Shown: positions 4,121-34,427 of the stretch, piece by piece
How positions within the stretch are numbered: position 1 is the first letter of the stretch
Layout of the letters: the number at the start of each line of letters is the position of its first letter
Made by a program: the position numbers and the translations under genes
The notes under the pieces: model-generated
Databases searched by the model: none
Told to the model about the DNA's origin: nothing
Seen by the model: the letters and a program-made list of their open reading frames with translations, nothing else
Virus record (IMG/VR): IMGVR_UViG_2778261448_000005
Length of the DNA stretch: 36,585 nucleotides
Reading direction: 5' to 3' (one strand)
DNA from: a virus
Taxonomy: Duplodnaviria > Heunggongvirae > Uroviricota > Caudoviricetes

Positions 4121-4243
4121 GAAACCAGAACATGCACACACAAAAAAACCGCTTGCCATGCCTCAATCGGTCAGGTTACATTTCCGCTGCACCTCATAAA
4201 ACGGGTGCCGGGATTCTCAACCCGATACAGAGCAAAGCGCATA

Positions 4244-4263
4244 ACCGCGCAAGCGGTTTTTTT
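4244..4263 (+). terminator. intrinsic-terminator-like hairpin with U-run
   Basis: AACCGC-GCAA-GCGGTT stem-loop followed by TTTTTTT, downstream of the ORF ending at 4120. Confidence 0.45.
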
Positions 4264-4442
4264 GTGCGTACTGTATTGCCACGTCTTTTTCGCGTCAGAA
4301 TTATGGCGGGGCGTACGGGGCCGACTTCGGTCGGGCCGGATTCTTTGCTCTCCGGTGTTGAGAACCCTGTACGTCTCGCCACCCCGAGATTCTCAACTCT
4401 GGATGGTGAGTTATTTCTATCACCGAGCAAAGAGGCCACACC

Positions 4443-4673
4443 ATGGCAGACCGCAAACAGCACCGCGCTATCGCGGAGCGTCGTCACATCCAGACTGAAA
4501 TCAACCGCAGACTTTCCCGCGCATCACGCGTCGCGCAAATCATGCACATCAATATGCTGCATGAGCGCAGCCACGCACTATCAAACATTTATTCCGCCTC
4601 TGTTTTCAGCTATCTGGCGGATGATCTGCACGAGCTTCAACAGCTCATCCAGCAGCAAAACAAACTCCATTAA
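4443..4673 (+). CDS. hypothetical early-region protein
   Basis: 76-aa ORF with GAGG RBS upstream. Confidence 0.4.
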   Translation: MADRKQHRAIAERRHIQTEINRRLSRASRVAQIMHINMLHERSHALSNIYSASVFSYLADDLHELQQLIQQQNKLH

Positions 4674-4745: not shown

Positions 4746-5135
4746 ATGATTGACGCTCATGACTTCACAAGATGGGTGCGCACACAGGACACCCGTCTGG
4801 CTCCCGTTCTTCAGGGGTTATTTGATCTCTACATCCGTGGTCGTGACAACAGAGCACGCACCACAAAACCGGAGAATGCAGACACCCTTTATTTCACAGT
4901 AGACGACTGCTACCGCGTGGACTTCACACCACACGGACTGGCGTTGCACTGCCTGACACCGCACGGCGAATCACTGCTGGCGTATTACGACTCTCCGGCC
5001 TCCGTATTTGCAGCAATGCTGGCGCATCGCACTGCTGGCGGGTGTGCCTCGCTGAGTGAATACACCGCTGAATTTAACCGCCTTTCCGCCCTCTTCTCGC
5101 AGGAGTGGCAGCGCGTGACGGGATACCAGCCATGA
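4746..5135 (+). CDS. hypothetical protein, translationally coupled to gpA
   Basis: 129-aa ORF whose stop overlaps the gpA start (ATGA at 5132-5135). Confidence 0.45.
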   Translation: MIDAHDFTRWVRTQDTRLAPVLQGLFDLYIRGRDNRARTTKPENADTLYFTVDDCYRVDFTPHGLALHCLTPHGESLLAYYDSPASVFAAMLAHRTAGGCASLSEYTAEFNRLSALFSQEWQRVTGYQP

Positions 5136-7972
5136 GTGCGTTTGCATGGAGCTGGAATGAACCACGACCAGCTATTGATCCGGCCAGATTTACGGAGCGC
5201 AGGCAGGAAACTGAAACCGACCTGCAACGCGCCATCCGTTACTACCTTGAGGCGGACAAAAGGGCACAGGAAGAACAGGAAGCGAAGGAAGAAGCCTTTT
5301 TCGCACAATCCGCCATGGGTAAAAAACTCATGGCATCCCTTGAGGAAGCCGGACAGCGTGAAAAGCTGGCACAGAGCATCATCAGTAAGCGCCGGGCAAC
5401 AGAACAAGACCCGGTAGCCCGTGCCTTTGCCACACTGAAGGCGCTTCCCGGTTATCTGCGAGAACCTCTGAGCCGCCACCTCTCTTTCCTGCGCAAGAAG
5501 CAGGAAGCCGATCGTCAGAAAGGCAAAAAGACCTGGCAGGCGGAACGCTATGCACGCGGAACCCTGCGCAAAATATTCGAACGTCTGGATCGCACTGACG
5601 GGCGCTGGCTGACACCTGGTTATCGCTCCCTTGCCGGACGCGAACGCCTGGACGATTTGCTTTACCTGCCGCAGCTCAACAAACACCAGATACAGACGCT
5701 GGCCACCATGACGGCGGCGATGTTCAGCAGCACCTTCGAAAAACTCTGCGATGGCTTTGGCGCGACCGATGGCGAACTGACCATGGATGTAACGCTGAAG
5801 GCGTATCAGATGCTGGCCCGCATGGCGTTACACCTGCACATCATGCCTCCACATTATGACGCACTGACAACAGATAAAGACCGGAGGAACGAACCGGACA
5901 CGGAGCTGCTGCCGGGCGCAATCCTTCGCCTGACCTGTGCGGAATGGTGGAAACGCAAACTGTGGCTGTTACGTTGCGAGTGGAGAGAAGAACAACTCCG
6001 CGCCGCCTGTCTGGTTTCCAGAAAAACATCGCCCTATCTGAGCCAGGACGCATTAAGCGAGTTTCGCGCACAGCGCGAGAAAACACGCGATTTCCTGAAA
6101 AGTTTCATGCTGGAAAACGAAGATGGGTTCACGATTGATCTCGAGACAGTGTATTACGCGGGAGTAAGTAACCCGGTTCACCGTAAGGCAGAAATGATGG
6201 CCACCATGAAGGGGCTGGAACTTCTGGCCGAAGCCCGTGGCGACAGAGCGGTGTTTCTGACTGTCACCTGCCCGTCAAAATACCACGCCACAACAGAGAA
6301 CGGTCATCCGAATCCCAAATGGAACGGAGCCACCATGCGCGACTCCAGCGATTACCTGGTTAACACGTTTTTTGCGGCGGTCCGCAAGAAACTGAACCGC
6401 GACGGCCTGCGCTGGTATGGCATCCGCACGGTGGAGCCTCACCATGACGGCACCGTGCACTGGCATATGATGGTCTTTGCTCATCCGGAAGAAATCGACA
6501 CTATTGTGTCCCACACCCGCGATATTGCCATTCAGGAAGATCGTCACGAGCTGGGTGATGATATTACCCCACGCTTTAAGGCGGAGTACGTCGACGGCTC
6601 AAAAGGCACACCGACCAGCTACATCGCCACCTACATCGGGAAAAACCTGGACAGCCGTGCCGTGGATGGCATCGACCCGAAAACGGGCAAGCCACGCGTT
6701 GACCACGAAACCGGAAAATCAATGGCCGAGAGCGTGGAACGCGCCATCGGCTGGGCGCGCCTTCACCGGGTCCGCCAGTTCCAGTTCTTTGGCATCCCCT
6801 CCCGCCAGGTATGGCGTGAACTGCGCCGCCTTGCCAGCCAGATGGCACGCAACCCGGAAGGCCCGCAACGGCTGAAGGATGACGCAATGGATGCGGTTCT
6901 TGCCGCCGCTGATGCCGGATGTTTTGCCACCTACATAGAGAAACAGGGCGGCGTACTTGTTCCACGCAAAGACTACCTGATTCGCACCGCCTACGACCTC
7001 GCCGATGAGATGAACGATTACGGCGAACAGAGCGTACAGATTTACGGGATCTGGTCACCACTCATCGGGGAATCCTCCCGTGTGTGCACGCATCCGGATA
7101 ACTGGAAGCTGGTAAGACGCAAACCGGAAGCGGAAGACAGCGCCCGCGAAAATGGTTTTGACCTTCAGGGCGGCCCTGCCGCCCCTTGGACTCGTGGCAA
7201 TAACTGTCCCCGTGTACAGGAAACGGACAACAACGGGACAGAACAGCCGGAAGAACGGCCAGCACCGTGGCCGCAGCTCCCTAACGGCGTTGAAGTGAAC
7301 GAATGGATGCGCTCACTGAAACGACACGAACGCCGGGCGCTGATGCGTTCGCTTCGTGACAAACAGGCAAAAAACAGCAGCGATGAAATGCAGAGCTGGA
7401 CACAGAGCCGCAAACAGCAGCGGCCTTTGCCTGATAACCACGAATTACTCGCTAAAGAATGGCGGGAGTCTGCTGAATCTCTCGGCCTGCATATCGGTGA
7501 ACAACAGATGCAGCACCTGTTACGGGGCGGCAGTCTGTACGTTGACGGCAGCATCATTGCACCGCAGGGATTTGAAATTGTACGCAAACCGGATGCCCGC
7601 CCGGACAGCCGAATCACGCAGCTCTGGCAGCGCCTGAGCCGTAATCACGGCGTAAGCAGCACGGAGATCCGCCATAACCCGGTCTCCAGCTATCTGGCAC
7701 AGCTCGGGGCATCAGACCCCGAAGCCGCCGCACGCCTGGCATCCACACTTCAGCAGGTCCAGAACACCATGAAAACACCCGTTACCGTGCTTTCTGACAT
7801 GCTGCGCGCCATTCGTGACGCAGAGCACGCACAGAGAATCAGAGAAACCACTGAACGCGCCCGCCGCAAAGCAAACCTGCTGAGGACTGGCCTGACCAGT
7901 GGAAACAAAAAACAGACAGAAACGGGATTCACAAATCCCGTAAATGAGCAAAAAACGCGCCGCGATATATGA
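5132..7972 (+). CDS. A: rolling-circle replication initiation endonuclease, P2 gpA family, with a long C-terminal extension
   Basis: Metal-binding HxH motif (HDGTVHWHMMVF) and paired active-site tyrosines (SYIATYIGKN). About 946 aa from the ATG at 5132. Confidence 0.9.
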   Translation: MSAFAWSWNEPRPAIDPARFTERRQETETDLQRAIRYYLEADKRAQEEQEAKEEAFFAQSAMGKKLMASLEEAGQREKLAQSIISKRRATEQDPVARAFATLKALPGYLREPLSRHLSFLRKKQEADRQKGKKTWQAERYARGTLRKIFERLDRTDGRWLTPGYRSLAGRERLDDLLYLPQLNKHQIQTLATMTAAMFSSTFEKLCDGFGATDGELTMDVTLKAYQMLARMALHLHIMPPHYDALTTDKDRRNEPDTELLPGAILRLTCAEWWKRKLWLLRCEWREEQLRAACLVSRKTSPYLSQDALSEFRAQREKTRDFLKSFMLENEDGFTIDLETVYYAGVSNPVHRKAEMMATMKGLELLAEARGDRAVFLTVTCPSKYHATTENGHPNPKWNGATMRDSSDYLVNTFFAAVRKKLNRDGLRWYGIRTVEPHHDGTVHWHMMVFAHPEEIDTIVSHTRDIAIQEDRHELGDDITPRFKAEYVDGSKGTPTSYIATYIGKNLDSRAVDGIDPKTGKPRVDHETGKSMAESVERAIGWARLHRVRQFQFFGIPSRQVWRELRRLASQMARNPEGPQRLKDDAMDAVLAAADAGCFATYIEKQGGVLVPRKDYLIRTAYDLADEMNDYGEQSVQIYGIWSPLIGESSRVCTHPDNWKLVRRKPEAEDSARENGFDLQGGPAAPWTRGNNCPRVQETDNNGTEQPEERPAPWPQLPNGVEVNEWMRSLKRHERRALMRSLRDKQAKNSSDEMQSWTQSRKQQRPLPDNHELLAKEWRESAESLGLHIGEQQMQHLLRGGSLYVDGSIIAPQGFEIVRKPDARPDSRITQLWQRLSRNHGVSSTEIRHNPVSSYLAQLGASDPEAAARLASTLQQVQNTMKTPVTVLSDMLRAIRDAEHAQRIRETTERARRKANLLRTGLTSGNKKQTETGFTNPVNEQKTRRDI

Positions 7973-8030
7973 AGCGCGCACAAAACAGGCGAAAGCGGGA
8001 TTTAAAAATCCCGTAAACGGTTAATTAACC
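7922..8030. promoter_or_regulatory. palindromic repeats across the gpA 3-prime end and parM leader, candidate ParR operator or centromere, or origin-associated
   Basis: Two copies of cGGGATT-N-AAATCCCGTAAA (7922-7944 and 7995-8017) and a perfect 12-bp palindrome GGTTAATTAACC (8019-8030). Confidence 0.35.
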
Positions 8031-8048
8031 AACATAAGGAAAATCGAC

Positions 8049-9008
8049 ATGAAAATTTGTATCGACGACGGCTCCACCAACATCAAGCTGGCATGGACTG
8101 AGAATGGCGAACGCCGCAACGCCATCAGCCCGAACAGCTTCAAGTCGGAATGGTCTGCGCCGTTCGGTGGCATGCAGCCCGCGAACTACATGCTTGATGG
8201 CGTGCGCTATGGTTTTGATCCGGTCAGCGATCGCTTTGTCCAGACGACCGACACGCAATACCAGTACAGCGATGTGAATGTAATCGCCATTCATCACGCG
8301 CTGGTCAAATCAGGCATCACGCCACAAGAGGTGGATGTGGTTGTCACCCTGCCACTGAGCGAGTATTTCGAGACAAACGCACAGCCGGACATGGCCAACA
8401 TCAACCGCAAAAAAGCGAACGTTATGCGCTCGGTGGAGTACCAGAACGGCGAAGCATTCACTATCCGTAACGTGCGGGTTATGCCTGAATCCATTCCGGC
8501 TGGCTTTAAAGCACTGGCTGACATGAGTCCGTTTGAATCCCTGCTGATTGTGGATTTAGGCGGAACCACGCTGGATGTGGCAAAGGTTCAAGGGCAACTG
8601 GCAGGTATCAGCCAGGTGTTTTGCGATCCACACGTAGGCGTTTCCCTGATGGCCGATGCCGTACTGTCGGTGATGGCCACTAACGGTATGCGCACCAGTC
8701 ACCACATCGCCAATACCATTATCGAACATCGCCATGATGAAGCCTGGCTGCGCCAGCACATCCACAATGACGCGCATTACGCCAGCCTGATGGCGGTTAT
8801 TCGTGAAAAGGAAGAAACACTGAAACAACGCGTGATCCGCGCGCTGGCGGTTTTTTCGGGTTACGGGCGGGTGATGGTTGTCGGTGGAGGGGCGGAGATT
8901 GTGGCACCCGCTATCCGCGAAGTCTGCGGAGTTAATGCGACTTTCATCGCGGACGGGGTGCCACAGTTTGCTCTGGTTAATGGGCTGTACGCAATGGACA
9001 AGGAGTAA
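8049..9008 (+). CDS. parM: ParM/StbA-family actin-like segregation ATPase
   Basis: N-terminus MKICIDDGSTNIKLAW and downstream blocks (SPNSFK, YSDVNVIAIHHAL, DLGGTTLDV, VGGGAEI) closely parallel plasmid R1 ParM as I recall it. AAGGAAA RBS. Confidence 0.85.
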   Translation: MKICIDDGSTNIKLAWTENGERRNAISPNSFKSEWSAPFGGMQPANYMLDGVRYGFDPVSDRFVQTTDTQYQYSDVNVIAIHHALVKSGITPQEVDVVVTLPLSEYFETNAQPDMANINRKKANVMRSVEYQNGEAFTIRNVRVMPESIPAGFKALADMSPFESLLIVDLGGTTLDVAKVQGQLAGISQVFCDPHVGVSLMADAVLSVMATNGMRTSHHIANTIIEHRHDEAWLRQHIHNDAHYASLMAVIREKEETLKQRVIRALAVFSGYGRVMVVGGGAEIVAPAIREVCGVNATFIADGVPQFALVNGLYAMDKE

Positions 9009-9012
9009 ACCA

Positions 9013-9327
9013 ATGACGACACCAACCAGACGGATAAGTTTCTATCTGAAGCCCGCCGCCGTCAAGAGTGAACAGGAGGCGTGCAATTACCTCGATAGCC
9101 TACCAGCCTCCGAACGCAGCCGCGCGCAACGCGCGGCCTTTCTGGCTGGGCTAGCGCTCATAAAGCGCAACCCAGCATTTGCCTACTGGATGGCCGAATG
9201 GCCAGAGGACAACCTCCCCTTCAATACCGTTAGCATCAAGGAAACATACCAGGATAATCAGCCTAGCGGAGTTGAATGCAATTTTTATAGAATAAAAAAG
9301 AATATTCAGACCTTATTCCCAGAATAA
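9013..9327 (+). CDS. parR: ParR-like centromere-binding adaptor
   Basis: 104 aa immediately downstream of parM. N-terminal segment (RRISFYLKP ... LDSLPASERSRAQRAAFLAGLAL) resembles R1 ParR. GGAG RBS 7 nt upstream. Confidence 0.7.
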   Translation: MTTPTRRISFYLKPAAVKSEQEACNYLDSLPASERSRAQRAAFLAGLALIKRNPAFAYWMAEWPEDNLPFNTVSIKETYQDNQPSGVECNFYRIKKNIQTLFPE

Positions 9328-9375
9328 TCTGATAATTGTATGTGAACTAATAAAATACAGACCAACACATCATTC

Positions 9376-9400
9376 TGGCACCCTTGCTAACAGGGTGCCA
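9376..9400. terminator. hairpin between convergent parR and the membrane-protein operon
   Basis: TGGCACCC-loop-GGGTGCCA stem-loop in the convergent intergenic gap. Confidence 0.45.
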
Positions 9401-9410
9401 ATGTTTCAAA

Positions 9411-10253
9411 TCATGATGAAATTGCCGAAGTTTTTTTATCGTGCTGAAGTACCGCAAATGCCATTAAAACCTCAAGAGAATAGCGGCGATAATACTTAAC
9501 AAAACCATAATAAAATACTCGGGATGCAGCAATACAAAACAAGAGAAGAAAACAAAAAGGTAACAGTCTGATATTTATATCTATTAAAAAGGATAGAAGG
9601 AGCAGGAACATAAGCAACCAGACTGAAGCGAGAAAAACAAATGTAATGTTTCTACAAAAACCATACAAAGCAACATAGTTTTGCATTTTCACCTGATGAT
9701 TTTTAGAATGTTCATACACATAATGATAAGCAAGGCGAAAAAGATCGCCCCTCAAGCCCTTACGTCGATATAGCGTAGATACAGAAAAAACATTTATATA
9801 ACCATCTCGTATTTGCGGCCAAAAGACTTTAATAAGTATAGAATGCAGTGTGGTTTTATGATGTTCTGCTTTATCAAAAGCTGATACAGGAAATAAAAAA
9901 ACTCCACGAATAAAATTAACTATACTGAACTTAGTATTATGTCGTTTTATTTTCAGGGAGCTTCTTTTAGAAAACAGATAAATTGAAGGATACCCAAGTT
10001 TACTGTTCATGTATTTTTCAATTAAACAGGATGATAGAATAGATATGAAGTGACCTGAAATATATGATAGAACGATTAATGCCACATATATAAATACACT
10101 TATTATTTCTTTATATTTCAGGATATGGTTAAGAATACCTTCTATATAAACAGGGTTAATTTCAATAGAAAACAAAAAAAGGATAAACAGGAATAACCCA
10201 CCTGGAATTAGATAGCCCAAAAAGTCATAAAATGAAAACGGATTCTGTGTCAC
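9411..10253 (-). CDS. multi-pass membrane protein of unknown family, AT-rich cargo
   Basis: 280 aa, GTG start preceded by GGGGGAAG. Hydrophobic helices at both ends (about 4-5 TM). Visibly lower GC than the phage backbone. Confidence 0.6.
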   Translation of the reverse strand: MTQNPFSFYDFLGYLIPGGLFLFILFLFSIEINPVYIEGILNHILKYKEIISVFIYVALIVLSYISGHFISILSSCLIEKYMNSKLGYPSIYLFSKRSSLKIKRHNTKFSIVNFIRGVFLFPVSAFDKAEHHKTTLHSILIKVFWPQIRDGYINVFSVSTLYRRKGLRGDLFRLAYHYVYEHSKNHQVKMQNYVALYGFCRNITFVFLASVWLLMFLLLLSFLIDINIRLLPFCFLLLFCIAASRVFYYGFVKYYRRYSLEVLMAFAVLQHDKKTSAISS

Positions 10254-10292
10254 ACTTCCCCCTGTGTTACTTGTAAATTAAAGGGTAAAACA

Positions 10293-10790
10293 TTATTTGT
10301 TTTTCCGTAAAGGATTAGCTTTCCATCTTCTTACTAACCATTCGAATTCTTGATATGTAGTATCCGAATTAATGCTTTCTCTGATTGCTTTAATTAATGG
10401 CTCGGCAATATCATATGTCTCTACAACTGTTGTGTAAGATGTTCTTTTTATCATTTTTTCATCATAAATACCTTCACGAATACTTACAGCAACTCGCTCG
10501 TAAAAATTTAAAATATATTGAAATTTTCGACGCTCGGCCATTTCTTCATCTGTTATTATGCAACCATCACAAGGAAAAACATAAGAACGAAATGATTTGC
10601 CTGAACGATGCACTTGTTTCAGGGTATGCAATGACTCTATATATTGCATATCTTGCCGACTCTCAAAAAGAAAGTTGGCCGTTTGAGTTTTTTTTGCGGT
10701 ACGCACATTGTAGATAATGGTTCCAATGGCAACCAAAACGCCAAGCAGAACAATAGCATTGCTGATGATTTGTAGTGTTATTGGGTTCAT
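10293..10790 (-). CDS. single-pass membrane protein of unknown family with CDGC motif, AT-rich cargo
   Basis: 165 aa, N-terminal TM helix (ISNAIVLLGVLVAIGTIIY), then a soluble domain. First gene of a two-gene minus-strand operon with 9411-10253. Confidence 0.6.
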   Translation of the reverse strand: MNPITLQIISNAIVLLGVLVAIGTIIYNVRTAKKTQTANFLFESRQDMQYIESLHTLKQVHRSGKSFRSYVFPCDGCIITDEEMAERRKFQYILNFYERVAVSIREGIYDEKMIKRTSYTTVVETYDIAEPLIKAIRESINSDTTYQEFEWLVRRWKANPLRKNK

Positions 10791-10804
10791 CCTATTTCAT
10801 CCAT

Positions 10805-10831
10805 AAAAAAGGCGGGGAGCAAATCCCCGCC
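10805..10831 (-). terminator. intrinsic terminator reading on the minus strand, just upstream of the cargo operon
   Basis: GGCGGGGA-loop-TCCCCGCC stem (8 bp, GC-rich) followed on the minus strand by TTTTTT. Confidence 0.45.
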
Positions 10832-11438
10832 TCATTAGAGGTCAACGTAGCTTAGAAACCATCAAATTCATCATACATTTTTTTCATATCAACCCCCTCA
10901 TAGAAATCATAACCACGTTTTGTGGTTTTTGTGACGTATAAACTACATCAAAGGCAAGCCACGGTCAAATATATAGGCATGCTTACCTGCACAAAAGTGC
11001 ACAAATTTGCACAATTTTTTTGAACGACTTTTTACCCTTCCGGCCCGCATGGCGGCTGGATCCGTCAAGGATCCGTGCGTGCACAAAAAAACGCGCTTTT
11101 TCTGCGCGCAGGTGACGGGGGAACAGCCCGCGTTTCAGGGGGTAAATAGCATTCCCTGAACGATGTCGCAGAGATACAACAGAATGGCTGTATTTCTCAC
11201 GCTGAGCGTGAAAAAGACGTGAGGGCTTTTGATTTGATGAGGTGAAAGGTAAGGCCGTCAAAATCGCACTGAGACGGCGAGAACATGCAGTCAACGCGGT
11301 GGGATTGCGTAAGAGTCTGACTGTCGATGATGGCAATCAGCAGGAAAGCGTCGTGAAATTATCTGACTGATACAGGAGCTGGAGAGTCGGGGCATAAATT
11401 TTTTATGCCCCGGCGAAGCAGCAGACAAGCGAAGCGCG

Positions 11439-12485
11439 TCAGGATGTGGGCTGGGTGTCTAACAGTGCGTAAGGGTTAAAGCGGATCACCTCTTCGCCAA
11501 GCCAGTCATTGATGTGCTTCATGGCCTCCATGACAGGCATCAGCTCGTTAATTGCGTAAACCCGCGCGGCCTTCTCCACATCACCAAACGCACTTTTTTC
11601 GCCCGGCATCGCCCCCATCAGTTGCGGCGGAACGCGGTGCGCAGCCAGCACATCATCACGGGATGCCGCCTTAACATTCATGAACTCATCTTTTGCGGTG
11701 ATCTGCTGGAACGGCAAAATTTGCACCCCCTCTTTGCCCCCGTTGGGCGCATGAATGAGCACGTTTTTAAACGCACCACCACCACGTGCCCCCTGTAGCG
11801 TTTCTTTCAGGGAGTCCATGCTTTCGCGGTTTACCTGCGCTGCACCGATGTAGATGATGCACCCGGCGTGGGATCCGTTGTCGTAGTACAGTTTTCTGAA
11901 CATGTCCGCCGAATGAGAAAGGCTGGCCGAGAGTAATGCGCCAAGATATTCCGGCATGCCGTAGATTTCCTGGTTAATATCCGGATTCATCAGGTGGCAC
12001 ACTTTGCCAGGACGAAACTGGAACGCGTCCTTGCCATCCTGCACATACCACCATGATTCAAGATCGCTTCCGCGTCGCATGTATTTCGCCAGGGCGTGCC
12101 GTAATTTAAGCGGTTCGCCGAGCATATTGCTTCGAAGCTCAAGGAATGCGTTACCGAACACAAACCAGTCCAGCGCCAGCGCCGAGAAATCCTGCCGGGA
12201 AAGCAGCGGGTGCGGGATGTAGCAACCGAGTAATACATTGCGCTTAAAGTAAAGCGCAGACTGATGCCAGGACGTTTGCCGGGCAGCTCTTGCCAGACCG
12301 TACCAGTCCACCGGAGTTTCATACCACCGCCCGTTATCAGCACAGTACATATTGTCCAGCAGGTCATGCCCGGTCAGGCGATAAGGACCATCAAATGTGA
12401 ATGCACTGAGCGATGATTCTTTCCTGAGCGCATCAGCGAGATCAATGCGTGAACTCATGCGCACTTTTTTATTTTTTCTGCTCAT
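11439..12485 (-). CDS. Q: portal protein, P2 gpQ family
   Basis: 348 aa (P2 gpQ about 344 aa). Downstream of and overlapping the large terminase in the leftward P-Q operon. Confidence 0.9.
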   Translation of the reverse strand: MSRKNKKVRMSSRIDLADALRKESSLSAFTFDGPYRLTGHDLLDNMYCADNGRWYETPVDWYGLARAARQTSWHQSALYFKRNVLLGCYIPHPLLSRQDFSALALDWFVFGNAFLELRSNMLGEPLKLRHALAKYMRRGSDLESWWYVQDGKDAFQFRPGKVCHLMNPDINQEIYGMPEYLGALLSASLSHSADMFRKLYYDNGSHAGCIIYIGAAQVNRESMDSLKETLQGARGGGAFKNVLIHAPNGGKEGVQILPFQQITAKDEFMNVKAASRDDVLAAHRVPPQLMGAMPGEKSAFGDVEKAARVYAINELMPVMEAMKHINDWLGEEVIRFNPYALLDTQPTS

Positions 12486-14236
12486 CAGAACTCCATAACC
12501 GTGAAACGCTCGTTTTCTCCTTCGCCGCCAATCGGTTCGTTAATGACAGCAAGCATGGTTGCCCACGCAAGGTCGCCGTGGCTGATCCCCCTCGCGCGGT
12601 CCGTTTCGTAAGTGATAAAGCCGCCCGGTGTTTTCACTTTACGCACGGCGTTAAAGGCCGCGACCAGCTCGCGTTCGGCGCGATCGTATTCCCACCGCCC
12701 GGCACGCATTATTTGCAGCATTTTCAGTACCAGCGACCGTTTTGATGACAGCGTGAAGGTGTACGGAATAGCAGCAGGGAAAAACCGTTTCACTATCTGA
12801 TAAACAGCCTCCCCGTTCCCGCCCGTCACATCAATGCCGATGTGTTCCACGTTGTAGCGATACGTGAACTCTTCAATGACTCTGGCCTGTTCTTCAAACT
12901 CCAGCCCCTGAACGCGTCGCGTCTCCACCGTTCGAAAACGGCCACCAGGAACAGCCGGAGGAACCACCACGGACACAGCGCCGCTGTCGCCGTTGCCACT
13001 GCTGCCGTTTGCGTCATACCCAATCCATACCGGACGATTCCCCATCGGGCGGGGAGCAAAAGGTTTCCAGTCTTTCCAGTCGTCGTATCCGTCAACACCG
13101 CAGCCAATCAGGATATTCAGGTTAAATGCCGATTCCCCTTCGCGAACAAACTCACACATATAGAGATTGAGGAACTCGTCTTCGGTGTTTTCATCACGGA
13201 TTTCGTCAATATCGGTGTGTTTCCAGCCGTGATTAACCACATCTTCCAGCGTGACAATTTGCCGCCACGTCCGGTCAGGGCAGATAAGCCCGTTATGCAG
13301 CGTTTTCCAGTCCACAGAAAAACGCTGGCGTTTATGCGAGGCCTTTTTCTCGTTCCAGCGGTCGCCGTTCCAGTAGGCGTATGCCTCGTGCGTTTCGGTG
13401 GATGGCGTGGAGAAGTAGGTGCGCCGCAGTCCGCTGAGGGTTGCCATAGCGCCAGCCACCTTGCGCAGTTCAGCAAAGCGACTGACCCAGAAAAATTCAT
13501 CAAAATAAAAATTGCCCGTATAGGACTGTGCCGACGCAGCAGAAGTGCCGAGAAAATGCAGCTCTGCGCCGTTGGAGAGGATGATTTTATCGCCCCCTTT
13601 CAGCTCCACATCAACTTCAGCCGCGGCCTTCTGAATAATGCTTTTAAACTGGAACGCCTGACGACGCGACGCAGACAAAAAAATCTGGTTACGCTGGTAA
13701 GGTTGCGCCACATCGTCACGCAGCGCCATCAGCAGAGCTTCCTGTGCAAAATACCAGGTCGCCCCAATCTGTCGGGATTTCAGGATCATCCTGTTACGTA
13801 TCCCGGCTTCCCTGCAAAGTGTCAGGGAGTCAAACCAGCCCCGCTGATGCCACTCCAGCCTGCTGATGATTTTTTCCCGCAGTGCGGCAATCTGTTCCGG
13901 CGTGAAATGATTTTTGAGTTTTTTCGCCCGGCCTTTCTTTCCTGCGGCCATCACATCCGGCTGGCCATCATGCAGCTTTTTAAGCTGCCGGGTCAGCAGG
14001 TCTATTTCCTTAAAGTCACCGCCTGTTTTATTCTGTTTTTCAGTAAGCTGGATGAGGCGCGCATCGATGGACTGCGTGACACGCTGCACGGGTGGCGTTT
14101 CATCCCACTGGTCACGTTTTTTCCACGCATAAATCGTGTTCGGGTTTATTCCCATCAGACGTGATATTTCTGCGGGCGGATAACCCTGCCAGTAAAGTTG
14201 CCGCGCACGCTGGCGCACAAAAGCGTCCTGAATCAT
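12485..14236 (-). CDS. P: terminase large (ATPase) subunit, P2 gpP family
   Basis: 583 aa with a terminase-type Walker A-like segment (ILKSRQIGATWYF). Divergent from the O-N-M operon as in P2. Confidence 0.9.
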   Translation of the reverse strand: MIQDAFVRQRARQLYWQGYPPAEISRLMGINPNTIYAWKKRDQWDETPPVQRVTQSIDARLIQLTEKQNKTGGDFKEIDLLTRQLKKLHDGQPDVMAAGKKGRAKKLKNHFTPEQIAALREKIISRLEWHQRGWFDSLTLCREAGIRNRMILKSRQIGATWYFAQEALLMALRDDVAQPYQRNQIFLSASRRQAFQFKSIIQKAAAEVDVELKGGDKIILSNGAELHFLGTSAASAQSYTGNFYFDEFFWVSRFAELRKVAGAMATLSGLRRTYFSTPSTETHEAYAYWNGDRWNEKKASHKRQRFSVDWKTLHNGLICPDRTWRQIVTLEDVVNHGWKHTDIDEIRDENTEDEFLNLYMCEFVREGESAFNLNILIGCGVDGYDDWKDWKPFAPRPMGNRPVWIGYDANGSSGNGDSGAVSVVVPPAVPGGRFRTVETRRVQGLEFEEQARVIEEFTYRYNVEHIGIDVTGGNGEAVYQIVKRFFPAAIPYTFTLSSKRSLVLKMLQIMRAGRWEYDRAERELVAAFNAVRKVKTPGGFITYETDRARGISHGDLAWATMLAVINEPIGGEGENERFTVMEF

Positions 14237-14390
14237 TGCTCCCCCTGAGTAATTACAGGAAGATTACCCGCGCGCGAAACTGTTCTCCTTAACCCCCTGT
14301 TCTGGCCGTTTTCTTACAACAAAAGCCCTTTGTATCAGCCTGTTACGCTTTGCCATCATGACTGAAGAACCAGTCAGAGGGGCAAAAACT

Positions 14391-15227
14391 ATGGCTAATG
14401 AAAAAAAGACATCCCGCAAAAAGTTTCGCGTGGCTGTCTCCGGATCAACTGTTGATGGCCGTGAAATCAGTCCGGTGCATCTGCGTGAAGCCGCCGAGAA
14501 CTTCAACCCGGATGTTTACGCTGCCCGCGTGAACGTTGAGCACTATCTCTCGCCATGCCCGTCAAGCGAATTTTCCGCAATGGGCGATGTCACCGCACTG
14601 AGTACGGAAGACATTACGGAAGGTCCGCTGGCCGGACGTACTGCGCTGTATGCAGAAATCGAACCGACAGAGCGCATGAAGCAGCTTGTCGCGGACGGCA
14701 AGAAAATCTATTCCAGTATCGAACTGCACCCGCAGTTCTCCGTTAACGGGCGCGCCTATCTGGTCGGGCTGGCGATGACCGACACCCCGGCAAGCCTGGG
14801 CACTGAGCGCCTGAAATTCACGGCACAGCAACGTCAGGCGGTAATGACGTTCAACAGTGTCCAGGGTGAAGCGCCGCTTATCTCCGAAGCCATCGAGTCT
14901 GAAATCATCGAAATGGCAGAACAACGCCAGGAAGAAGGCACCCAGTGGTTTAACCGCGTAATGGGGATTATTGGCCGTGGCCGCAAAGCGGATGACGCCA
15001 GTTTTTCCCGTATTCAGGAAGCGGTGGAAGGCGTCGCAACGTCACAGGCCGACATTATCGACCGTTTTAATGTGCTGGAAACCCGCCATCAGCAGGACCG
15101 CCAGAAAATTACGTCACTGATCACAGAGCTGACAGCACTGAAGGAAAAACTGCGCACGCAGGACGGCGATCCGCAGAACCGGTTCACCGCAACGGGCGCA
15201 GCCTCCGACCAGATGGCTGACTTCTGA
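14391..15227 (+). CDS. O: capsid scaffolding protein, P2 gpO family
   Basis: ORF-track frame 14358-15227, start set to the ATG at 14391 with GAGGGG RBS. Size and position match gpO. Confidence 0.85.
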   Translation: MANEKKTSRKKFRVAVSGSTVDGREISPVHLREAAENFNPDVYAARVNVEHYLSPCPSSEFSAMGDVTALSTEDITEGPLAGRTALYAEIEPTERMKQLVADGKKIYSSIELHPQFSVNGRAYLVGLAMTDTPASLGTERLKFTAQQRQAVMTFNSVQGEAPLISEAIESEIIEMAEQRQEEGTQWFNRVMGIIGRGRKADDASFSRIQEAVEGVATSQADIIDRFNVLETRHQQDRQKITSLITELTALKEKLRTQDGDPQNRFTATGAASDQMADF

Positions 15228-15250
15228 TAAGACAAAGGAGCAAATTTTTT

Positions 15251-16303
15251 ATGAATCTGGTGATGTCAGATATTACCCGCAACAAGCTGGGTTGCTATAT
15301 GGCGCAGCAGGCGTCGCTTAATAATATCCCGGTTTCTGCGCTGGTATCGCGATTTACCGTAGAACCCTCGGTGCAGCAGCGTTTTGAAAACGCCTCAAAG
15401 GAAAGCACCGAATTTACAAAAAGAATTAACGTGATCGGCGTAACCGACCAGAAAGGCGAAAAAATCCTCCCGGATACCACAGGACCGATTGCGCGCACGA
15501 ATACCAGTTATGACGGCACAAAACGCCGTAACCCGAATAACGTGGTTGATCTGAAAAACCGCAAATACCAGTGCGAACAGGTGAACTACGACACGTTTAT
15601 TTCATATCCGCAGCTTGATGCCTGGGCGGCACATCCTGATTTTCAGTCCCGCATCAGCGCACAGATTGCCCGACAGGTGGCGCTTGACCGCATCATGATC
15701 GGTTTCAACGGCACGTCTCACGCGGATGAGTCCAACTTCAGCACCAACAAGCTGCTTCAGGACGTTAACGTGGGCTGGCTGGAGCACATCAGAACCGACG
15801 CCAGCGAGCGCGTTATGAATGACGTGACGCTGACCTCCCGCAACATGGACAACACCGTGGCGCACGCGGGTAAGTATGCGAACGCTGATGCACTGGTACA
15901 GGACGCACGCTCATCCCTGCTGGATGAATGGCACAAGGAAGCTGACGACCTCGTGGTGATTATGGGGCGCAACCTGTTTAACTCGCTGCGTCTTCCCGTG
16001 CTGAACAGCATCAGCGGCCAGAATCCCAATGCGGAATTACTTGCCGGGCAGCTCATCCTGTCATCGCGCACCATTGGCGGGCTGGGCGTGTTCCTTGCGC
16101 CGTTCTTCCCGGATGCAACGATGCTGATCACCTCGTTCAACAACCTGTCGATTTACTGGCAGAAAGGTTCAATGCGTCGTCTGATGAAAGACGAACCGGA
16201 ATACAACCGCATCGCCACCTACCAGTCCATCAATGACGCTTATGTCGTTGAAGACTATGGCAAGTGCGCGATGGTCACTGGCCTGAAGTTCGCCGACAGC
16301 TAA
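15251..16303 (+). CDS. N: major capsid protein, P2 gpN family
   Basis: 350 aa (P2 gpN about 357 aa), AAGGAG RBS, directly after the scaffold gene. Confidence 0.9.
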   Translation: MNLVMSDITRNKLGCYMAQQASLNNIPVSALVSRFTVEPSVQQRFENASKESTEFTKRINVIGVTDQKGEKILPDTTGPIARTNTSYDGTKRRNPNNVVDLKNRKYQCEQVNYDTFISYPQLDAWAAHPDFQSRISAQIARQVALDRIMIGFNGTSHADESNFSTNKLLQDVNVGWLEHIRTDASERVMNDVTLTSRNMDNTVAHAGKYANADALVQDARSSLLDEWHKEADDLVVIMGRNLFNSLRLPVLNSISGQNPNAELLAGQLILSSRTIGGLGVFLAPFFPDATMLITSFNNLSIYWQKGSMRRLMKDEPEYNRIATYQSINDAYVVEDYGKCAMVTGLKFADS

Positions 16304-16348
16304 TCAACTCACGGCGGGCATCATGCCCGCCTGTAACGGAGAGAAAAA

Positions 16349-17149
16349 ATGATTACTCCTGCACAGCAACACTGGCAGAACGTGATGGCACAGCGCGCAG
16401 GCCGGGCGAATGAAGGCGTGGACCACGCCGCGCGTACCGCGCATGAAGAGGTGCTGTATCGTCTGCGTCTGGCACAGGCCCGGCTTAAGGGCGTACAGGC
16501 CAGAAGCGCGAAAGCCGCCATCAAAAAAGAGTTGTTGCCGGACTTTTCCGGCTGGATTGAGGGAACGCTGGAGGCTGACGGTGGGCAGCAGGATGAAGTG
16601 ATTGCCACGCTGATGGTGTGGGCGATTGACTGCGGCGATCTTCCGCTGGCGCTGCGTATTGGTGCATATGTGGTCCGTCACAACCTCATCATGCCGGATA
16701 ACTTTGGCCGTACTGCTGCCACAGTGCTGACCGAAGAAATCTGCAATCCGGTACTGACGCAGGCCGGGACGGATGCCGACGCGGATTTGTCCGCCTTTAT
16801 CGAACCTCTGGACACCCTCCGGGAGATTGTCACCGACCAGGACATGCCGGACGAAGTGCGCGCCAAATTATGCAAGGCGTGTGCCTTTGCCCGTCGTGGC
16901 CTGACCGATGCAGACAGCATGGCCCTGTCACTGAAGCTGCTGCGCGAAGCGATGCACCTGAACCCGAACGCAGGTGTGAAACGCGAGATTGCAACCCTTT
17001 CCCGCGCCCTGAAAAAAGCCGATTCCGCAGCCGCACCAGAAGACGCCAGCGCACAGCAGGCGCAGGACGAAAGCAGCAAAAGTAAAAAGACAACGCGGAA
17101 GCCTGCAACACGAAAAACCACCGCGACGCAGAAGGCGAAGCGCGGTTAA
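16349..17149 (+). CDS. M: terminase small (endonuclease) subunit, P2 gpM family
   Basis: 266 aa, GGAGAG RBS, position after N. Confidence 0.85.
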   Translation: MITPAQQHWQNVMAQRAGRANEGVDHAARTAHEEVLYRLRLAQARLKGVQARSAKAAIKKELLPDFSGWIEGTLEADGGQQDEVIATLMVWAIDCGDLPLALRIGAYVVRHNLIMPDNFGRTAATVLTEEICNPVLTQAGTDADADLSAFIEPLDTLREIVTDQDMPDEVRAKLCKACAFARRGLTDADSMALSLKLLREAMHLNPNAGVKREIATLSRALKKADSAAAPEDASAQQAQDESSKSKKTTRKPATRKTTATQKAKRG

Positions 17150-17251
17150 CGACTGACCCCGTCAGCGGGCGGCGTGCGCGGTGTTCCGGTTTGACTCCGT
17201 GACCGTTTACACCGCGCACCCACCGCCCGATTTTTTTCAGGAGTGAACCCC

Positions 17252-17746
17252 ATGAGTATGGTTGCCAGAAACAACCCCGGACCCGCAGAGGACGACATCA
17301 CCGATACCGATGATGGTGATACCCGTATTTCAGCGGGCGCATTCTGGCCGGATATTGTGCTGCGTGAGCTGCGTCTGGCGATACGACTGCCGGGCCGTGT
17401 GACCACCTCCCGCCTGCTGCATACCGCCACCGGGGCCGTGGCACACGTTACCCGCGAGCTGGAAGCGTGGCAGCAGGAACAGCAGGCGGCTGGCCATCAG
17501 ACGCTGGCCGATGTTCCGGCACCCGTAATTAACGGAGAAAGCGTCAATCTCTGGCACTGGCGCAATGCTGTTTATACCGCCACACGCGCCCTGATTCTGG
17601 AGCGTTACCGCGATGCGGACACAACGGACAAGGGCGACCGCCGGGCGGACGCACTGGATATACAGACATCGGATTTGTGGCGTGATGTGAGCTGGGCCAT
17701 CTCTGACATTCTGTGCCGCCCACGAATCTTTGCGGAGTTGTGCTGA
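17252..17746 (+). CDS. L: head completion protein, P2 gpL family
   Basis: ORF-track frame 17243-17746, start set to the ATG at 17252 after an AGGAGTG RBS. About 164 aa. Confidence 0.8.
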   Translation: MSMVARNNPGPAEDDITDTDDGDTRISAGAFWPDIVLRELRLAIRLPGRVTTSRLLHTATGAVAHVTRELEAWQQEQQAAGHQTLADVPAPVINGESVNLWHWRNAVYTATRALILERYRDADTTDKGDRRADALDIQTSDLWRDVSWAISDILCRPRIFAELC

Positions 17747-17946
17747 TGAAAGTAAAGGCACTGGAAGACGACACCGTGGATTCGCTCTGTTTCCGGTACT
17801 ACGGCACGACGCAGGGCGTCACCGAAAAGGTGCTGGATGCCAACCCCGGACTCTGTCAGCAGGTATTTCTGGACGCAGGGCAGGAAGTGGAGATGCCGGA
17901 GCCGGAGAAGAAGAAACGAGAAATGATTCAGTTGTGGGGGGAGTAG
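17746..17946 (+). CDS. X: tail protein X, P2 gpX family
   Basis: 66 aa from the ATG overlapping the L stop. MKVKALEDDTVDSLCFRYYG ... ANPGL parallels P2 gpX as I recall it. Confidence 0.8.
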   Translation: MKVKALEDDTVDSLCFRYYGTTQGVTEKVLDANPGLCQQVFLDAGQEVEMPEPEKKKREMIQLWGE

Positions 17947-17948
17947 CA

Positions 17949-18272
17949 GTGAGCACCATTCAAACAGGGATCACAGAGCAGGTTATTGCGTGGCTCTTTG
18001 ACCACCTGCCAACGGTGTATGCAGTAGGCGCGGCGGTCAGCATTTCCGCGCTGATGAGTCTTTATGACGGACGAACACTGGTTCAGACCGTAACGGGATC
18101 GCTGGCGTGCGGCGTTCTTGCCATGGCCGTGGCCGGGTCGTTGCGCTTCTTCGGGTTTCCTGAAGATGCCGTGACGTTTATCGGCGCATCAATCGGTTTT
18201 ATGGGTGCAGAGAAAGCACGCGACAAGGTTATTGCGGCCTTTAATCGCAGGGTGAAGGAGAAGGAAGAATGA
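17949..18272 (+). CDS. holin (putative)
   Basis: GTG start after a GGGGGGAG RBS. About 107 aa with hydrophobic helices, immediately upstream of the endolysin and overlapping its start. Confidence 0.6.
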   Translation: MSTIQTGITEQVIAWLFDHLPTVYAVGAAVSISALMSLYDGRTLVQTVTGSLACGVLAMAVAGSLRFFGFPEDAVTFIGASIGFMGAEKARDKVIAAFNRRVKEKEE

Positions 18273-18661
18273 GCAACACATTTAAATTCAGCAGCCGGAG
18301 CGAAAAGAATTTGCAGGGCGTAAATCCTGATCTGGTGAAAGTGACCCGACGGGCACTGGAAATCTCGGAAGTGGATTTTGGTATCACCGAAGGGTTGCGC
18401 AGCCGTTACCGCCAGAAGCAACTGGTGGCCACGGGTAAGAGCCAGACCATGAACAGCCGCCACCTTACGGGGCATGCCGTGGATGTTGTGGCTTATATCG
18501 GCAGCCAGGTGTCATGGGAATGGCCGCTGTACGAAAAAATCGCAGCAGCATTCAGACAGGCCAGCCGGGAACTGAATATTCCGGTGGAATGGGGCGGCGA
18601 CTGGAAGACCCTGAAAGACGGACCACATTTTCAGTTACCACACGGAGCCTATCCGGCATGA
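18269..18661 (+). CDS. endolysin, M15-family zinc peptidase type
   Basis: 130 aa with the SRHLTGHAVDV zinc-ligand motif typical of M15 peptidases. Sits in the lysis cassette. Confidence 0.8.
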   Translation: MSNTFKFSSRSEKNLQGVNPDLVKVTRRALEISEVDFGITEGLRSRYRQKQLVATGKSQTMNSRHLTGHAVDVVAYIGSQVSWEWPLYEKIAAAFRQASRELNIPVEWGGDWKTLKDGPHFQLPHGAYPA

Positions 18662-19065
18662 AGCTCTGGCCCACGCTGGGCGTCGCTTTCCTTCTGATTG
18701 CCGCATGGGGAACATCCATGCGTCTGTCGTGGTCGCTGGGCCGGGAGAACGCCAGAAACGAAGCGCAGGCCAGCGCCCTGAAAAGTACCGCCGACACCCT
18801 GAATATCATCAGCACCGGGGTACAGGATATGCAGCAGGTGCTGGCGCAACTCCGCGTGGAAAATCAGCAACGCAATCAGGACGGAGAGGCCAGACGTGAA
18901 CAGCTACGCAACGATATTGCAAAAGATGAATGCGCCCACGCTTTGCCTGACGCTCGTTTTACTGACAGGTTGCGCAGGCACGCAGAACGCGCCACGGCCA
19001 GCGCCGTCAGTCCGGCTTATACCGCAGACGCTGACCATACCGGTAACGCCTCCCCCCTTCCCTGA
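18658..19065 (+). CDS. i-spanin, LysB/Rz-like
   Basis: N-terminal TM helix (MKLWPTLGVAFLLIAAWG) then a charged periplasmic domain. Start overlaps the endolysin stop. Confidence 0.65.
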   Translation: MKLWPTLGVAFLLIAAWGTSMRLSWSLGRENARNEAQASALKSTADTLNIISTGVQDMQQVLAQLRVENQQRNQDGEARREQLRNDIAKDECAHALPDARFTDRLRRHAERATASAVSPAYTADADHTGNASPLP

Positions 19066-19216
19066 TACTCCCACATGGGGAAATCTCGGTATATGGGGCG
19101 ACCGCCTTCTGGATGCACTGGAAACCTGTAACGCGGATAAACGGGCCATTGAATTACTGGAACAGCGCAGGCTGCAACGACTGAACAACGAGGATAATAA
19201 CCATGCTGAAAACTGA
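18926..19216 (+). CDS. o-spanin lipoprotein, LysC/Rz1-like
   Basis: Signal peptide with lipobox (LVLLTGCAG) and a proline-rich body, in the +1 frame overlapping the 3-prime half of the i-spanin gene. Confidence 0.6.
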   Translation: MNAPTLCLTLVLLTGCAGTQNAPRPAPSVRLIPQTLTIPVTPPPFPDTPTWGNLGIWGDRLLDALETCNADKRAIELLEQRRLQRLNNEDNNHAEN

Positions 19217-19670
19217 TTCCCTGCGTGAAGCCATGACCCGTTCATGCCGATGGTGTCAGGCCAACCCGGAAAAATTCACCATTTTCGTGGAGAGCGGCAA
19301 CATTGAAACGACCGGAGAAACGCCCTCGTTTGTTTACCGCTATCAGATGGTGATGTTTGTCATGGATTACGCAGGAGAGCTGGACGACCTCACGCTACCG
19401 CTGCTGGCGTGGTTATCCGAAAATCAGCCACAGTTGTTGCTCAATCCGGAGCGTAATCAGGACATCAAATTTTCCGCCGTTATCAATGACGATGACAGCG
19501 CCGATCTCCTGTTTACGCTCCCCCTGCGGGAACGCGTTCGCATCACGCGCAGCAGTCAGGGCACACCGCAGGCAGAACACCTGCCGGAGCCAAAACCCCG
19601 TCTGCCCTCTTCCGAAGGCGACTGGTCGCATGTATTCCAGGATGTGACGTGGGGTGAAAGCGATGGATAA
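19203..19670 (+). CDS. R: tail completion protein R, P2 gpR family
   Basis: 155 aa (same length as P2 gpR), position after the lysis cassette. Confidence 0.8.
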   Translation: MLKTDSLREAMTRSCRWCQANPEKFTIFVESGNIETTGETPSFVYRYQMVMFVMDYAGELDDLTLPLLAWLSENQPQLLLNPERNQDIKFSAVINDDDSADLLFTLPLRERVRITRSSQGTPQAEHLPEPKPRLPSSEGDWSHVFQDVTWGESDG

Positions 19671-20298
19671 GGTATTCACCCGCGTGGATGAAACCTTTGA
19701 GGCTATCCGCGACAGCCTGAATCAGCAGGCCATCAATAACATCGCCAGAAAGCTGGCACAGGATTTACGCCGCGCCCAGCAGGCACGTATCCGGTCACAG
19801 AAAGCGCCGGACGGGATCGCATGGACACCACGCAGACGCCGCGTAACCCGGATACAGGAGCGCATTCGCTTTATCTGGAATAACGAAGCACGCACGCTGA
19901 AAAACTGGCATCACGACACGGGGAAATACGGGCGAACCATTACCGGGTGGGATGAGGATAAAAACAATATCCGCACGTTTTACCGGGATGACATCGACCG
20001 TTTTCTGGAAATACGCACCCGGCGCATCAACCAGGACAGCACAAAGCGCGTCCCCATGTTCGTAAAACTGCGCACCGCCCGCTACCTGAAAGCCCGTGCA
20101 GATGCTTCCGGTGTGACGGTGGGTTACAGCGGCGTGGCCGCACGTATTGCACGCGTTCATCAGTTCGGTGAGCGCGATCAGGTTGCGCCGGGCATTTTCA
20201 CCGATTACCCGGTACGTGAGCTGCTGGGTATCAGCCAGGCAGATGAACGCCTGATTTATAACACGGTGCTGGGCCGGATTGCGGAGGCTGTACGGTGA
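19663..20298 (+). CDS. S: tail completion protein S, P2 gpS family
   Basis: Start set to the internal ATG at 19663 (MDKVFTRV...), overlapping the R stop region. Confidence 0.75.
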   Translation: MDKVFTRVDETFEAIRDSLNQQAINNIARKLAQDLRRAQQARIRSQKAPDGIAWTPRRRRVTRIQERIRFIWNNEARTLKNWHHDTGKYGRTITGWDEDKNNIRTFYRDDIDRFLEIRTRRINQDSTKRVPMFVKLRTARYLKARADASGVTVGYSGVAARIARVHQFGERDQVAPGIFTDYPVRELLGISQADERLIYNTVLGRIAEAVR

Positions 20299-20876: not shown

Positions 20877-21223
20877 CAACCCGCTACACAGGAATGAACC
20901 CGGACGAGACGGGAAACCTGAACGATATGGAGCACCTGAAACAGTCAGTCAGGGACATCCTGACCACCCCGCTGGCAAGCCGGGTTATGCGACGGGAATA
21001 TGGCAGCCTTGTGCCTGATTTGATTGACGAACCCATGAATAACACCACGCGTCTGCAATGCATGAGTGCTGCCGTGATTGCGCTGACACGATGGGAACCC
21101 CGCATTGCCCTGGACGCCATCGACGTTGTCTGGAAAGCGGGAGGCCTCGCCGGGGTGACGCTGTCGGGCACTGTCATGCAGACCATGCAGAATGTTGAAT
21201 TAACCATCACGCTGAGGGAGTAA
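20873..21223 (+). CDS. W: baseplate protein W, P2 gpW family
   Basis: 116 aa (P2 gpW 115 aa), overlapping start. Confidence 0.85.
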   Translation: MTTRYTGMNPDETGNLNDMEHLKQSVRDILTTPLASRVMRREYGSLVPDLIDEPMNNTTRLQCMSAAVIALTRWEPRIALDAIDVVWKAGGLAGVTLSGTVMQTMQNVELTITLRE

Positions 21224-21226
21224 ATC

Positions 21227-22646: not shown

Positions 22647-22648
22647 GC

Positions 22649-34423: not shown

Positions 34424-34427
34424 TAAA

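Follow-up and report, generated by a model that had tools for sequence, protein, structure and literature searches.

The parM-parR gene pair considered here lies in a 36,585-nucleotide stretch of Caudoviricetes DNA (IMG/VR virus record IMGVR_UViG_2778261448_000005; "the window" below means this whole stretch), and its closest described counterparts are the ParMRC (par/stbAB) systems of plasmids R1 and NR1 and of the IncF clade. In R1, a low-copy plasmid, two blocks of five 11-bp iterons surround the par promoter and ParR has 116 amino acids. Two further systems are known from experiments on integrated elements. In the integrated prophage CGP3 of Corynebacterium glutamicum, AlpA and AlpC make up a pair of actin-like filament former and DNA-binding adaptor; the adaptor binds repeats in the region upstream of its own operon, and the pair is expressed at an early stage of induction, works on circular phage DNA and is required for efficient replication (Donovan et al. 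2015, PMC4446434). In the SXT/R391 integrative and conjugative elements (ICEs), which normally reside in the chromosome, the type II partition system srpMRC stabilises the transient excised circle, which replicates via a rolling-circle initiator, and a toxin-antitoxin system contributes (Carraro et al. 2015, PMC4489591). A phage-borne ParM with ParR next to it is also found in D6, a P1-like plasmid prophage of 91 kb for which a partition role is expected; its GenBank note reads 'similar to phage P88 StbA protein'. Among Escherichia coli P2-like phages, about one quarter have a putative partition system, which may enable them to be maintained as plasmids (Rousset et al. 2022), and RefSeq names the products 'plasmid segregation protein ParM' and 'plasmid partitioning/stability family protein'. 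The observation and the episome idea are thus both in print; the parM and parR genes were not analysed in the P88 and phiSM papers.

The pair in the window is a fixed, selectively maintained component of the early/replication region in P88-like phages and in several other temperate phages of the P2-like group, and we estimate at roughly 0.55 the probability that it encodes a working ParMRC-type machine whose action on circular phage DNA would be transient, following infection or induction, and would not serve to maintain a plasmid prophage. The element itself is a P88-like (Xuanwuvirus, Peduoviridae) P2-type E. coli prophage. A first-pass annotation, made from the letters of the window, had called it an integrative P2-like prophage, and the identical prophage in E. 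coli CRE1540 bears this out: in the RefSeq annotation the host gene pdxB abuts the integrase and flk lies on the other side. The same annotation names a Hok/Gef family gene where the first-pass annotation had seen a Hok-family toxin, and this gene lies inside the phage genome. The genes on which the argument rests are the following.

5105-7972, + strand: gpA, P2-type replication endonuclease, 955 amino acids (Pfam Phage_GPA, 1.2e-131; RefSeq annotation)
8049-9008, + strand: parM, actin-like segregation ATPase, 319 amino acids (Pfam, R1 ParM structures in PDB, PHROG 691)
9013-9327, + strand: parR (stbB-type), adaptor, 104 amino acids, ATG at 9013 (PF10784, PHROG 2515, 2jd3 profile match)
33688-33828, + strand: Hok/Gef gene (RefSeq annotation of the identical prophage)

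A gap of 76 bp separates gpA from parM on the same strand, and parR starts 4 bp after the parM stop. The gpA protein has a long C-terminal extension past the Phage_GPA domain (residues 194-518), and the gpA proteins of relatives measure 785 to 907 amino acids. The nearest named phages are P88 (NC_026014), phiSM, 520873 and P884B11, all Xuanwuvirus in the Peduoviridae, in which gpA, ParM and ParR occupy matching positions and are already annotated as such. Their ParMs are 97-99% identical to that of the window and they have the same upstream repeats; the window element belongs to this group, with parM-parR in the identical position after gpA. It departs from P88 in its ParR, which is the rarer allele and past residue 18 shares 53% identity with P88 ParR, and in its cargo after parR. 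Counts given below refer to a P88-like comparison set of 85 loci for gene order and the upstream region, 83 ParM open reading frames (ORFs), 81 ParR ORFs and 77 stretches following parR.

By its sequence the ORF pair is assigned to the R1/StbAB family of type II ParM/ParR systems. ParM, with the N-terminus MKICIDDGSTNIKLAW, covers both domains of the family (Pfam StbA_N at 1.4e-81 over residues 1-157 and the ParM C-terminal domain at 1e-68 over residues 159-316), and a PDB search matched its residues 2-316 to R1 ParM structures (1mwk and others) with E=3e-92. PHROG 691, 'partition protein', is the matching family. The first-pass annotation had described the protein as matching R1 ParM closely; the same family and a full-length match are confirmed, whereas 'closely' overstates an identity of 46% in direct alignment, beside 52% for the ParM of the nearest IncF clade (an IncFIA/FII plasmid) and 47% for that of D6. 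The window ParM forms a lineage separate from that of R1. Columns of DDGST (phosphate 1), PES, DLGGTT (phosphate 2) and GGGA (adenosine) are invariant relative to the R1, IncF and D6 ParMs and in all distinct P88-like ParM sequences. Across 65 distinct sequences the ratio of nonsynonymous to synonymous substitution rates (dN/dS) of parM is 0.06, and the 319-amino-acid ORF is intact in all 83 loci; parM is under strong purifying selection. NCBIfam had no specific model above its cut-off, and PADLOC returned no match for ParM or ParR.

The 104-amino-acid ORF downstream, which had been singled out as ParR-like and contains LDSLPASERSRAQRAAFLAGLAL, proves to be a family member by alignment as well. 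It matches Pfam PF10784 (Plasmid_stab_B) at 7.7e-29, the family to which R1 ParR also belongs, and PHROG 2515, 'partition protein'; a profile built from phage and plasmid ParRs matches the crystal structure of pB171 ParR, 2jd3, at 4.6e-16. The protein consists of an N-terminal ribbon-helix-helix DNA-binding part, a helical domain, a hypervariable linker and a C-terminal tail ending in ...KKNIQTLFPE. Its first 18 residues, MTTPTRRISFYLKPAAVK, form the ribbon strand and hardly vary. Two alleles of the helical domain occur, 53% identical overall, and the tail ...N-I-x-x-(L/F)-F-P-E is kept in both. The broader motif N-x-x-x-(L/F)-F-P is present in all phage ParR alleles, in distant phage ParRs and in the closest plasmid clade, and its invariant Asn aligns with the related tail of R1 ParR, ...KKNAMKLIN. 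This R1 peptide is reportedly the one that docks on ParM. ParR is intact in 80 of the 81 loci. The window system shares with R1, NR1 and the IncF clade its protein families, its gene order, a full-length ParM match and cis repeats directly upstream; its host is an integrated P2-like prophage, whereas that of R1 is a low-copy plasmid.

The repeats upstream of parM are the candidate centromere, and they fall into three elements, none of them assigned to a strand.

7906-7944: 39-nt direct repeat, distal copy, with the palindrome ACGGGATT-CACA-AATCCCGT (7922-7941); candidate ParR-binding (centromere) site
7979-8017: 39-nt repeat, proximal copy, with the palindrome CGGGATTT-AA-AAATCCCG (7996-8013); candidate ParR site, possible operator
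8020-8031: 12-bp perfect palindrome GGTTAATTAACC, just 5' of the parM ribosome-binding site

The distal copy falls in the last gpA codons and the proximal copy is intergenic, 36 bp 5' of the parM ATG; the two are 82% identical and 73 bp apart. Each holds an 18-20-bp palindrome with the motif CGGGATT-N4-AATCCCG, found at 7923-7940 and 7996-8013 and nowhere else in the 36.6-kb window, where 0.14 matches are expected and one of 100 shuffles reaches two. The palindromes noticed at first pass are real (GGGATTTAAAAATCCC within 7996-8013 and GGTTAATTAACC at 8020-8031), while the copy at 7923-7940 had been missed. The parC-like site that had been supposed there is not of the R1 kind: R1-type and IncF-type control plasmids have two blocks of 10-11-bp iterons upstream of parM, while the window has two 39-nt repeats, no array of short iterons and no called promoter. 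A centromere of another architecture than R1 parC is possible. The 12-bp palindrome is a possible operator or -10-like AT-rich element. In most relatives GATTAATTAATC replaces GGTTAATTAACC (69 loci against 11, with 4 mixed forms); it too is a perfect palindrome, both outer changes retaining the symmetry, and the ATTAAT core is also present in Plesiomonas and Hafnia.

The 160 bp upstream of parM, including the gpA 3' end, are conserved in the 85 loci with the exception of one haplotype, and the outer arms CGGGA/TCCCG of the palindromes are mostly retained around a variable centre. The exceptional haplotype, seen in one IMG/VR locus, has the two 39-nt repeats collapsed to one by a 73-bp deletion that takes out the gpA stop codon, and represents a natural one-site variant. 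Related prophages of other genera have sites of their own. Plesiomonas has two CGGG-N10-CCC(G/A) sites 72 bp apart and the same ParR strand, TRRISFYL, as the window; Hafnia has a single similar site directly 5' of parM despite an extra ORF between gpA and parM; Serratia and Enterobacter have the ParR strand NRKISFYL and a 14-20-nt inverted repeat, ATAGAAAAAT..., with a 26-28-nt gap. The type of repeat thus tracks the N-terminal strand of ParR, TRRISFYL going with CGGG-N10-CCCG pairs and NRKISFYL with the long ATAGAAAAAT inverted repeat, and in every case the repeats are found in the roughly 130 bp that precede parM, including prophages with extra ORFs between gpA and parM. Since the repeats stay with parM and their type tracks the ParR N-terminus, they are candidate ParR sites, an assignment for which the sequences are suggestive and not proof. 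Folding of 7900-8060 as RNA gave z = -3.8. This score was not read as evidence of a structured RNA, because two mutually complementary palindromes would yield it anyway.

The position of the pair is fixed, while what follows it is not. In all 85 P88-like loci parM-parR comes directly after gpA, whereas the 600 bp after parR sort into 20 clusters among 77 loci. DNA identity to P88 spans parM and breaks off some 18 codons after the start of parR. Each of the rarer ParR alleles tends to be accompanied by a single cargo type, and the common P88 allele occurs with 12 cargo types. The variable hotspot therefore starts after parR and reaches into its 3' two-thirds. This does not agree with the first-pass suggestion that plasmid stabilisation modules had been captured into the cargo hotspot, and the pair, present in every locus and without a PADLOC match, does not behave as anti-phage cargo of the gpA-Q hotspot. 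In the window the cargo consists of a 280-amino-acid multi-pass membrane protein (9411-10253, - strand; PHROG 12528), with a weak Csx27-like PADLOC match at 1.4e-5, and a DUF4760 protein (10293-10790, - strand; PHROG 2284). The two follow the same ParR allele in other loci and in an IncC plasmid fragment, and may be an uncharacterised defence pair.

The association with P2-like phages is deep. Distant relatives, collected by protein search and contig look-ups (a contig scan with a single ParM gave 3 near-identical loci), include ParMs at 53-62% identity in Plesiomonas (62%), Hafnia (62%), Serratia (58%) and Enterobacter (53%), all of them in P2-like prophages that share the order gpA-ParM-ParR-variable genes-portal-terminase. 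Relative to the window, portal and terminase of these prophages are 30-47% identical and gpA 31-56%, against 53-62% for ParM. A neighbour-joining tree of 109 full-length ParMs places the gpA-linked ones in a single clade of 16, and PLSDB contains no plasmid ParM between 60% and 95% identity to the window ParM. Because synteny is kept in distant prophages and PLSDB has no ParM in that range, the comparison speaks for a lineage long resident in phages, or for exchange within the P2-like group, and against a recent capture from plasmids. For chromosomal ParMs at 51% identity or below a P2 link was rejected: these belong to an ICE in Dickeya, an integrated plasmid-like region in Mangrovibacter and a plasmid in Pantoea, and the link is confined to the ParM clade at 53% or above. 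The slot after parR is occupied in distant prophages too, by a HicAB toxin-antitoxin in Serratia (7450-8084 of locus L093) and a KAP NTPase in Enterobacter (7411-8757 of locus L094), and the post-parR hotspot is conserved across genera. One 226-kb contig labelled Vagococcus sp., a Gram-positive, carries an E. coli-type ParM locus at 97% identity (NZ_JBQPOM010000071.1); it is probably an assembly contamination or a mislabelling.

The setting of the pair also bears on when it would be expressed. From cox (1536) to parR every ORF is on the + strand, and the cargo genes that follow are convergent with this block. Two RNAs and one hairpin frame it.

4189-4263, + strand: IsrK, Hfq-binding small RNA (Rfam, 63 bits, above the gathering score)
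4299-4386, + strand: P1/P7-type C4 antisense RNA (Rfam, 78.5 bits, above the gathering score)
9376-9400, + strand: GC-rich hairpin with a 9-bp perfect stem, TGGCACCCT/AGGGTGCCA, between parR and the convergent cargo

IsrK and C4 lie just upstream of a 76-amino-acid 'derepression protein' ORF (4443-4673), a small ORF, gpA and parMR, an arrangement whose sequence suggests an immI-like antirepressor control unit in the window phage. The IsrK match itself terminates in a strong terminator-like hairpin (4243-4258). The only match in the window to the LexA box CTGT-N8-ACAG is inside gpA, with none near the c4/antirepressor region. A consensus scan of 7900-8050 called no sigma-70-like promoter, and manual reading gave only 4/6 hexamers, a further difference from R1; no + strand terminator was called between gpA and parM. 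The hairpin at 9376-9400, which has no canonical T-run, is the probable end of the rightward transcript, and P88 has a different hairpin in the equivalent place. As parMR closes the rightward early block, directly behind gpA, and no promoter of its own was recognised, we infer that it is the tail of an early/derepression transcription unit that is silent in the repressed prophage and becomes active only upon infection or derepression.

In P2, rolling-circle replication is initiated by gpA, and packaging proceeds from monomeric circles. On the reading favoured here, ParR dimers would bind the two palindromic repeats (7922-7941 and 7996-8013) through the invariant N-terminal ribbon-helix-helix strand, and the ParR tail KKNIQTLFPE would catch the ends of ATP-dependent ParM filaments, whose growth would push copies of the circular phage genome apart. 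With expression limited to infection or derepression, the target would be extrachromosomal phage circles and not the repressed, integrated prophage. The benefit could take one of two forms: the machine may scatter monomeric circles across the cell while they replicate, so that replication and packaging are efficient, in the manner of AlpAC in CGP3, or it may ensure that both daughters receive a copy before integration or after abortive excision, as with srpMRC of R391. We regard this as the best explanation; its models are AlpAC and R391 srpMRC, experimental precedents in integrated elements, and of the two AlpAC is the functional model that we prefer. With CGP3 the window shares the integrated-prophage location and the layout of filament former plus adaptor; it differs in actin-like subfamily, host phylum and gene order (alpA-alpC). 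With R391 it shares a parallel set of rolling-circle initiator, partition pair and toxin gene in gpA, ParMR and Hok, although R391 is an ICE and not a phage, and srpMRC is distant from R1 ParMR. Activity was demonstrated by experiment in both precedents, whereas the window system is known from its genes, their position and their sequence. The sequences show homology, intact catalytic motifs, purifying selection, conserved synteny, conserved sites and a chromosomal location; ParR binding to the repeats, the timing of expression and the biological benefit we infer. The more specific proposal, that this clade of P2-like phages uses a ParMRC system with a minimal two-palindrome centromere within the replication module, separating or dispersing gpA-made circles or the few copies present before integration, is put forward tentatively, at somewhat less than an even chance.

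Several observations weigh against transient action on phage circles. There are only two palindromic sites, compared with the iteron blocks of R1 and the plasmid clade, which puts a filament-capping ParR array in doubt, and the palindromes could be RNA hairpins or the sites of another protein. Variants of the palindromes and of the 12-mer show no association with the allele of the ParR helical domain; this gives no positive evidence of recognition, and fits recognition via the invariant ParR N-terminus. A simple consensus scan can miss real promoters, which leaves room for expression from the prophage. One circular record of 34.5 kb, discussed below, exists, and a literature search found no functional study of a P88-like ParMR.

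That the phage persists instead as a low-copy episome, kept over the long term by ParMRC with the help of Hok, was proposed in the first-pass annotation, and Rousset et al. (2022) had already raised the possibility. In its favour are the homology of the module to plasmid partition systems, the use of a 47%-identical ParM/ParR pair by the phage-plasmid D6, a Hok/Gef gene in the same phage and the one circular record, described below, that is a whole P88-like genome. We nevertheless find this unlikely, given where the module resides. With a 1.5-kb query the module was found in 1304 of 5426 complete E. coli genomes (about 24%), and of the 1444 places in these genomes 1442 are chromosomal and 2 are on plasmids. 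PLSDB gave 7 matches to the module. NZ_CP148288.1, circular and 34,461 bp long, is a complete P88-like genome recorded as a plasmid; it is the only phage-sized circular record among the PLSDB and RefSeq matches, and with its integrase retained it may represent a phage that had excised or been induced and was captured in the assembly. The remaining plasmid records that were examined are fragments. A Shigella 'plasmid' is a linear, IS-ridden, degraded piece, and in the conjugative, KPC-carrying IncC plasmid pC-Ec2-KPC (NZ_MK439959.1) a P88-like segment (6058-25501) comprising early genes, gpA, ParMR, the same cargo as in the window and head and tail genes stands directly after an IS26 copy. Every element retains an integrase and sits at an att site, the window element between pdxB and flk rather than on an autonomous low-copy replicon. 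It also differs from phage-plasmids such as P1, D6 and N15, which stay extrachromosomal, have a plasmid-type replication module and usually lack an integrase: of replication functions only gpA was seen, the rolling-circle initiator encoded in the lytic early block, and no plasmid-type Rep. Because of the 1442 chromosomal places against 2 on plasmids and the lack of a recognisable plasmid-type Rep, stable plasmid lysogeny of P88-like phages is at best rare.

A role outside partition, in exclusion or defence, in interference with resident plasmids or as a cytoskeletal effector, is improbable in our estimate. In its favour, the pair marks the gpA-side edge of the gpA-Q hotspot, where anti-phage systems abound, the 3' part of parR shows a partial link with the type of cargo that follows, and a cyanobacterial chromosomal ParMR has been repurposed for cell shape (CorMR preprint). 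Yet PADLOC had no match for the pair, whose presence and position are invariant within the lineage and across genera, unlike hotspot cargo, and a DNA-binding strand and a putative ParM-binding tail in ParR, together with repeats in cis, would complete the anatomy of a segregation module. Cross-interference with plasmids in particular is not predicted, as the upstream repeats differ from R1-type and IncF-type parC; those of D6 are of the TCTCA type. The pair might also be a relic, decaying or neutral, that an ancestral fusion of plasmid and phage left behind and that has no function today. No function has been demonstrated to date, the centromere is atypical and one haplotype has its two repeats collapsed to one. 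Against this stand the low dN/dS, the invariance of all nucleotide-binding motifs, a ParM that is intact in every locus, synteny held over deep phage divergence and a ParM better conserved than portal and terminase, all of which make a relic a very remote prospect. Among these readings, transient action of ParMR on circular phage DNA is the one that we retain.

Elsewhere in the window, the Hok/Gef gene is followed by a second variable cargo slot. An identical Hok/Gef protein lies between ogr and attP in NZ_CP148288.1; after hok, the window has a zinc-ribbon membrane protein and a protein annotated 'TagO' (34091-35321, + strand), and NZ_CP148288.1 has a com/mom-like methyltransferase in the same slot. 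An Rfam scan of the window reported no Sok RNA family. It did report the IS009 RNA family at 25334-25532 (+ strand, 193 bits), where the tail fibre assembly gene (24991-25569) has its 3' end.

For the annotation of E. coli genomes, a 'plasmid segregation protein ParM' on the chromosome usually marks a P88-like prophage and not an integrated plasmid, and the left edge of the P2 defence hotspot in P88-like phages lies after parR and partly inside it, not after gpA. If the more specific proposal of a two-palindrome centromere within the replication module is true, actin-driven DNA segregation would belong to the ordinary life cycle of a temperate phage that is very common in E. coli, present in about 24% of complete genomes, and would not be a trait taken over from plasmids for life as an episome. 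A role in phage DNA organisation or in the establishment of lysogens would extend the precedents of CGP3 and R391 to the best-studied bacterial host, and would provide a genetically tractable system as well as a type II system with an unusually small centromere.

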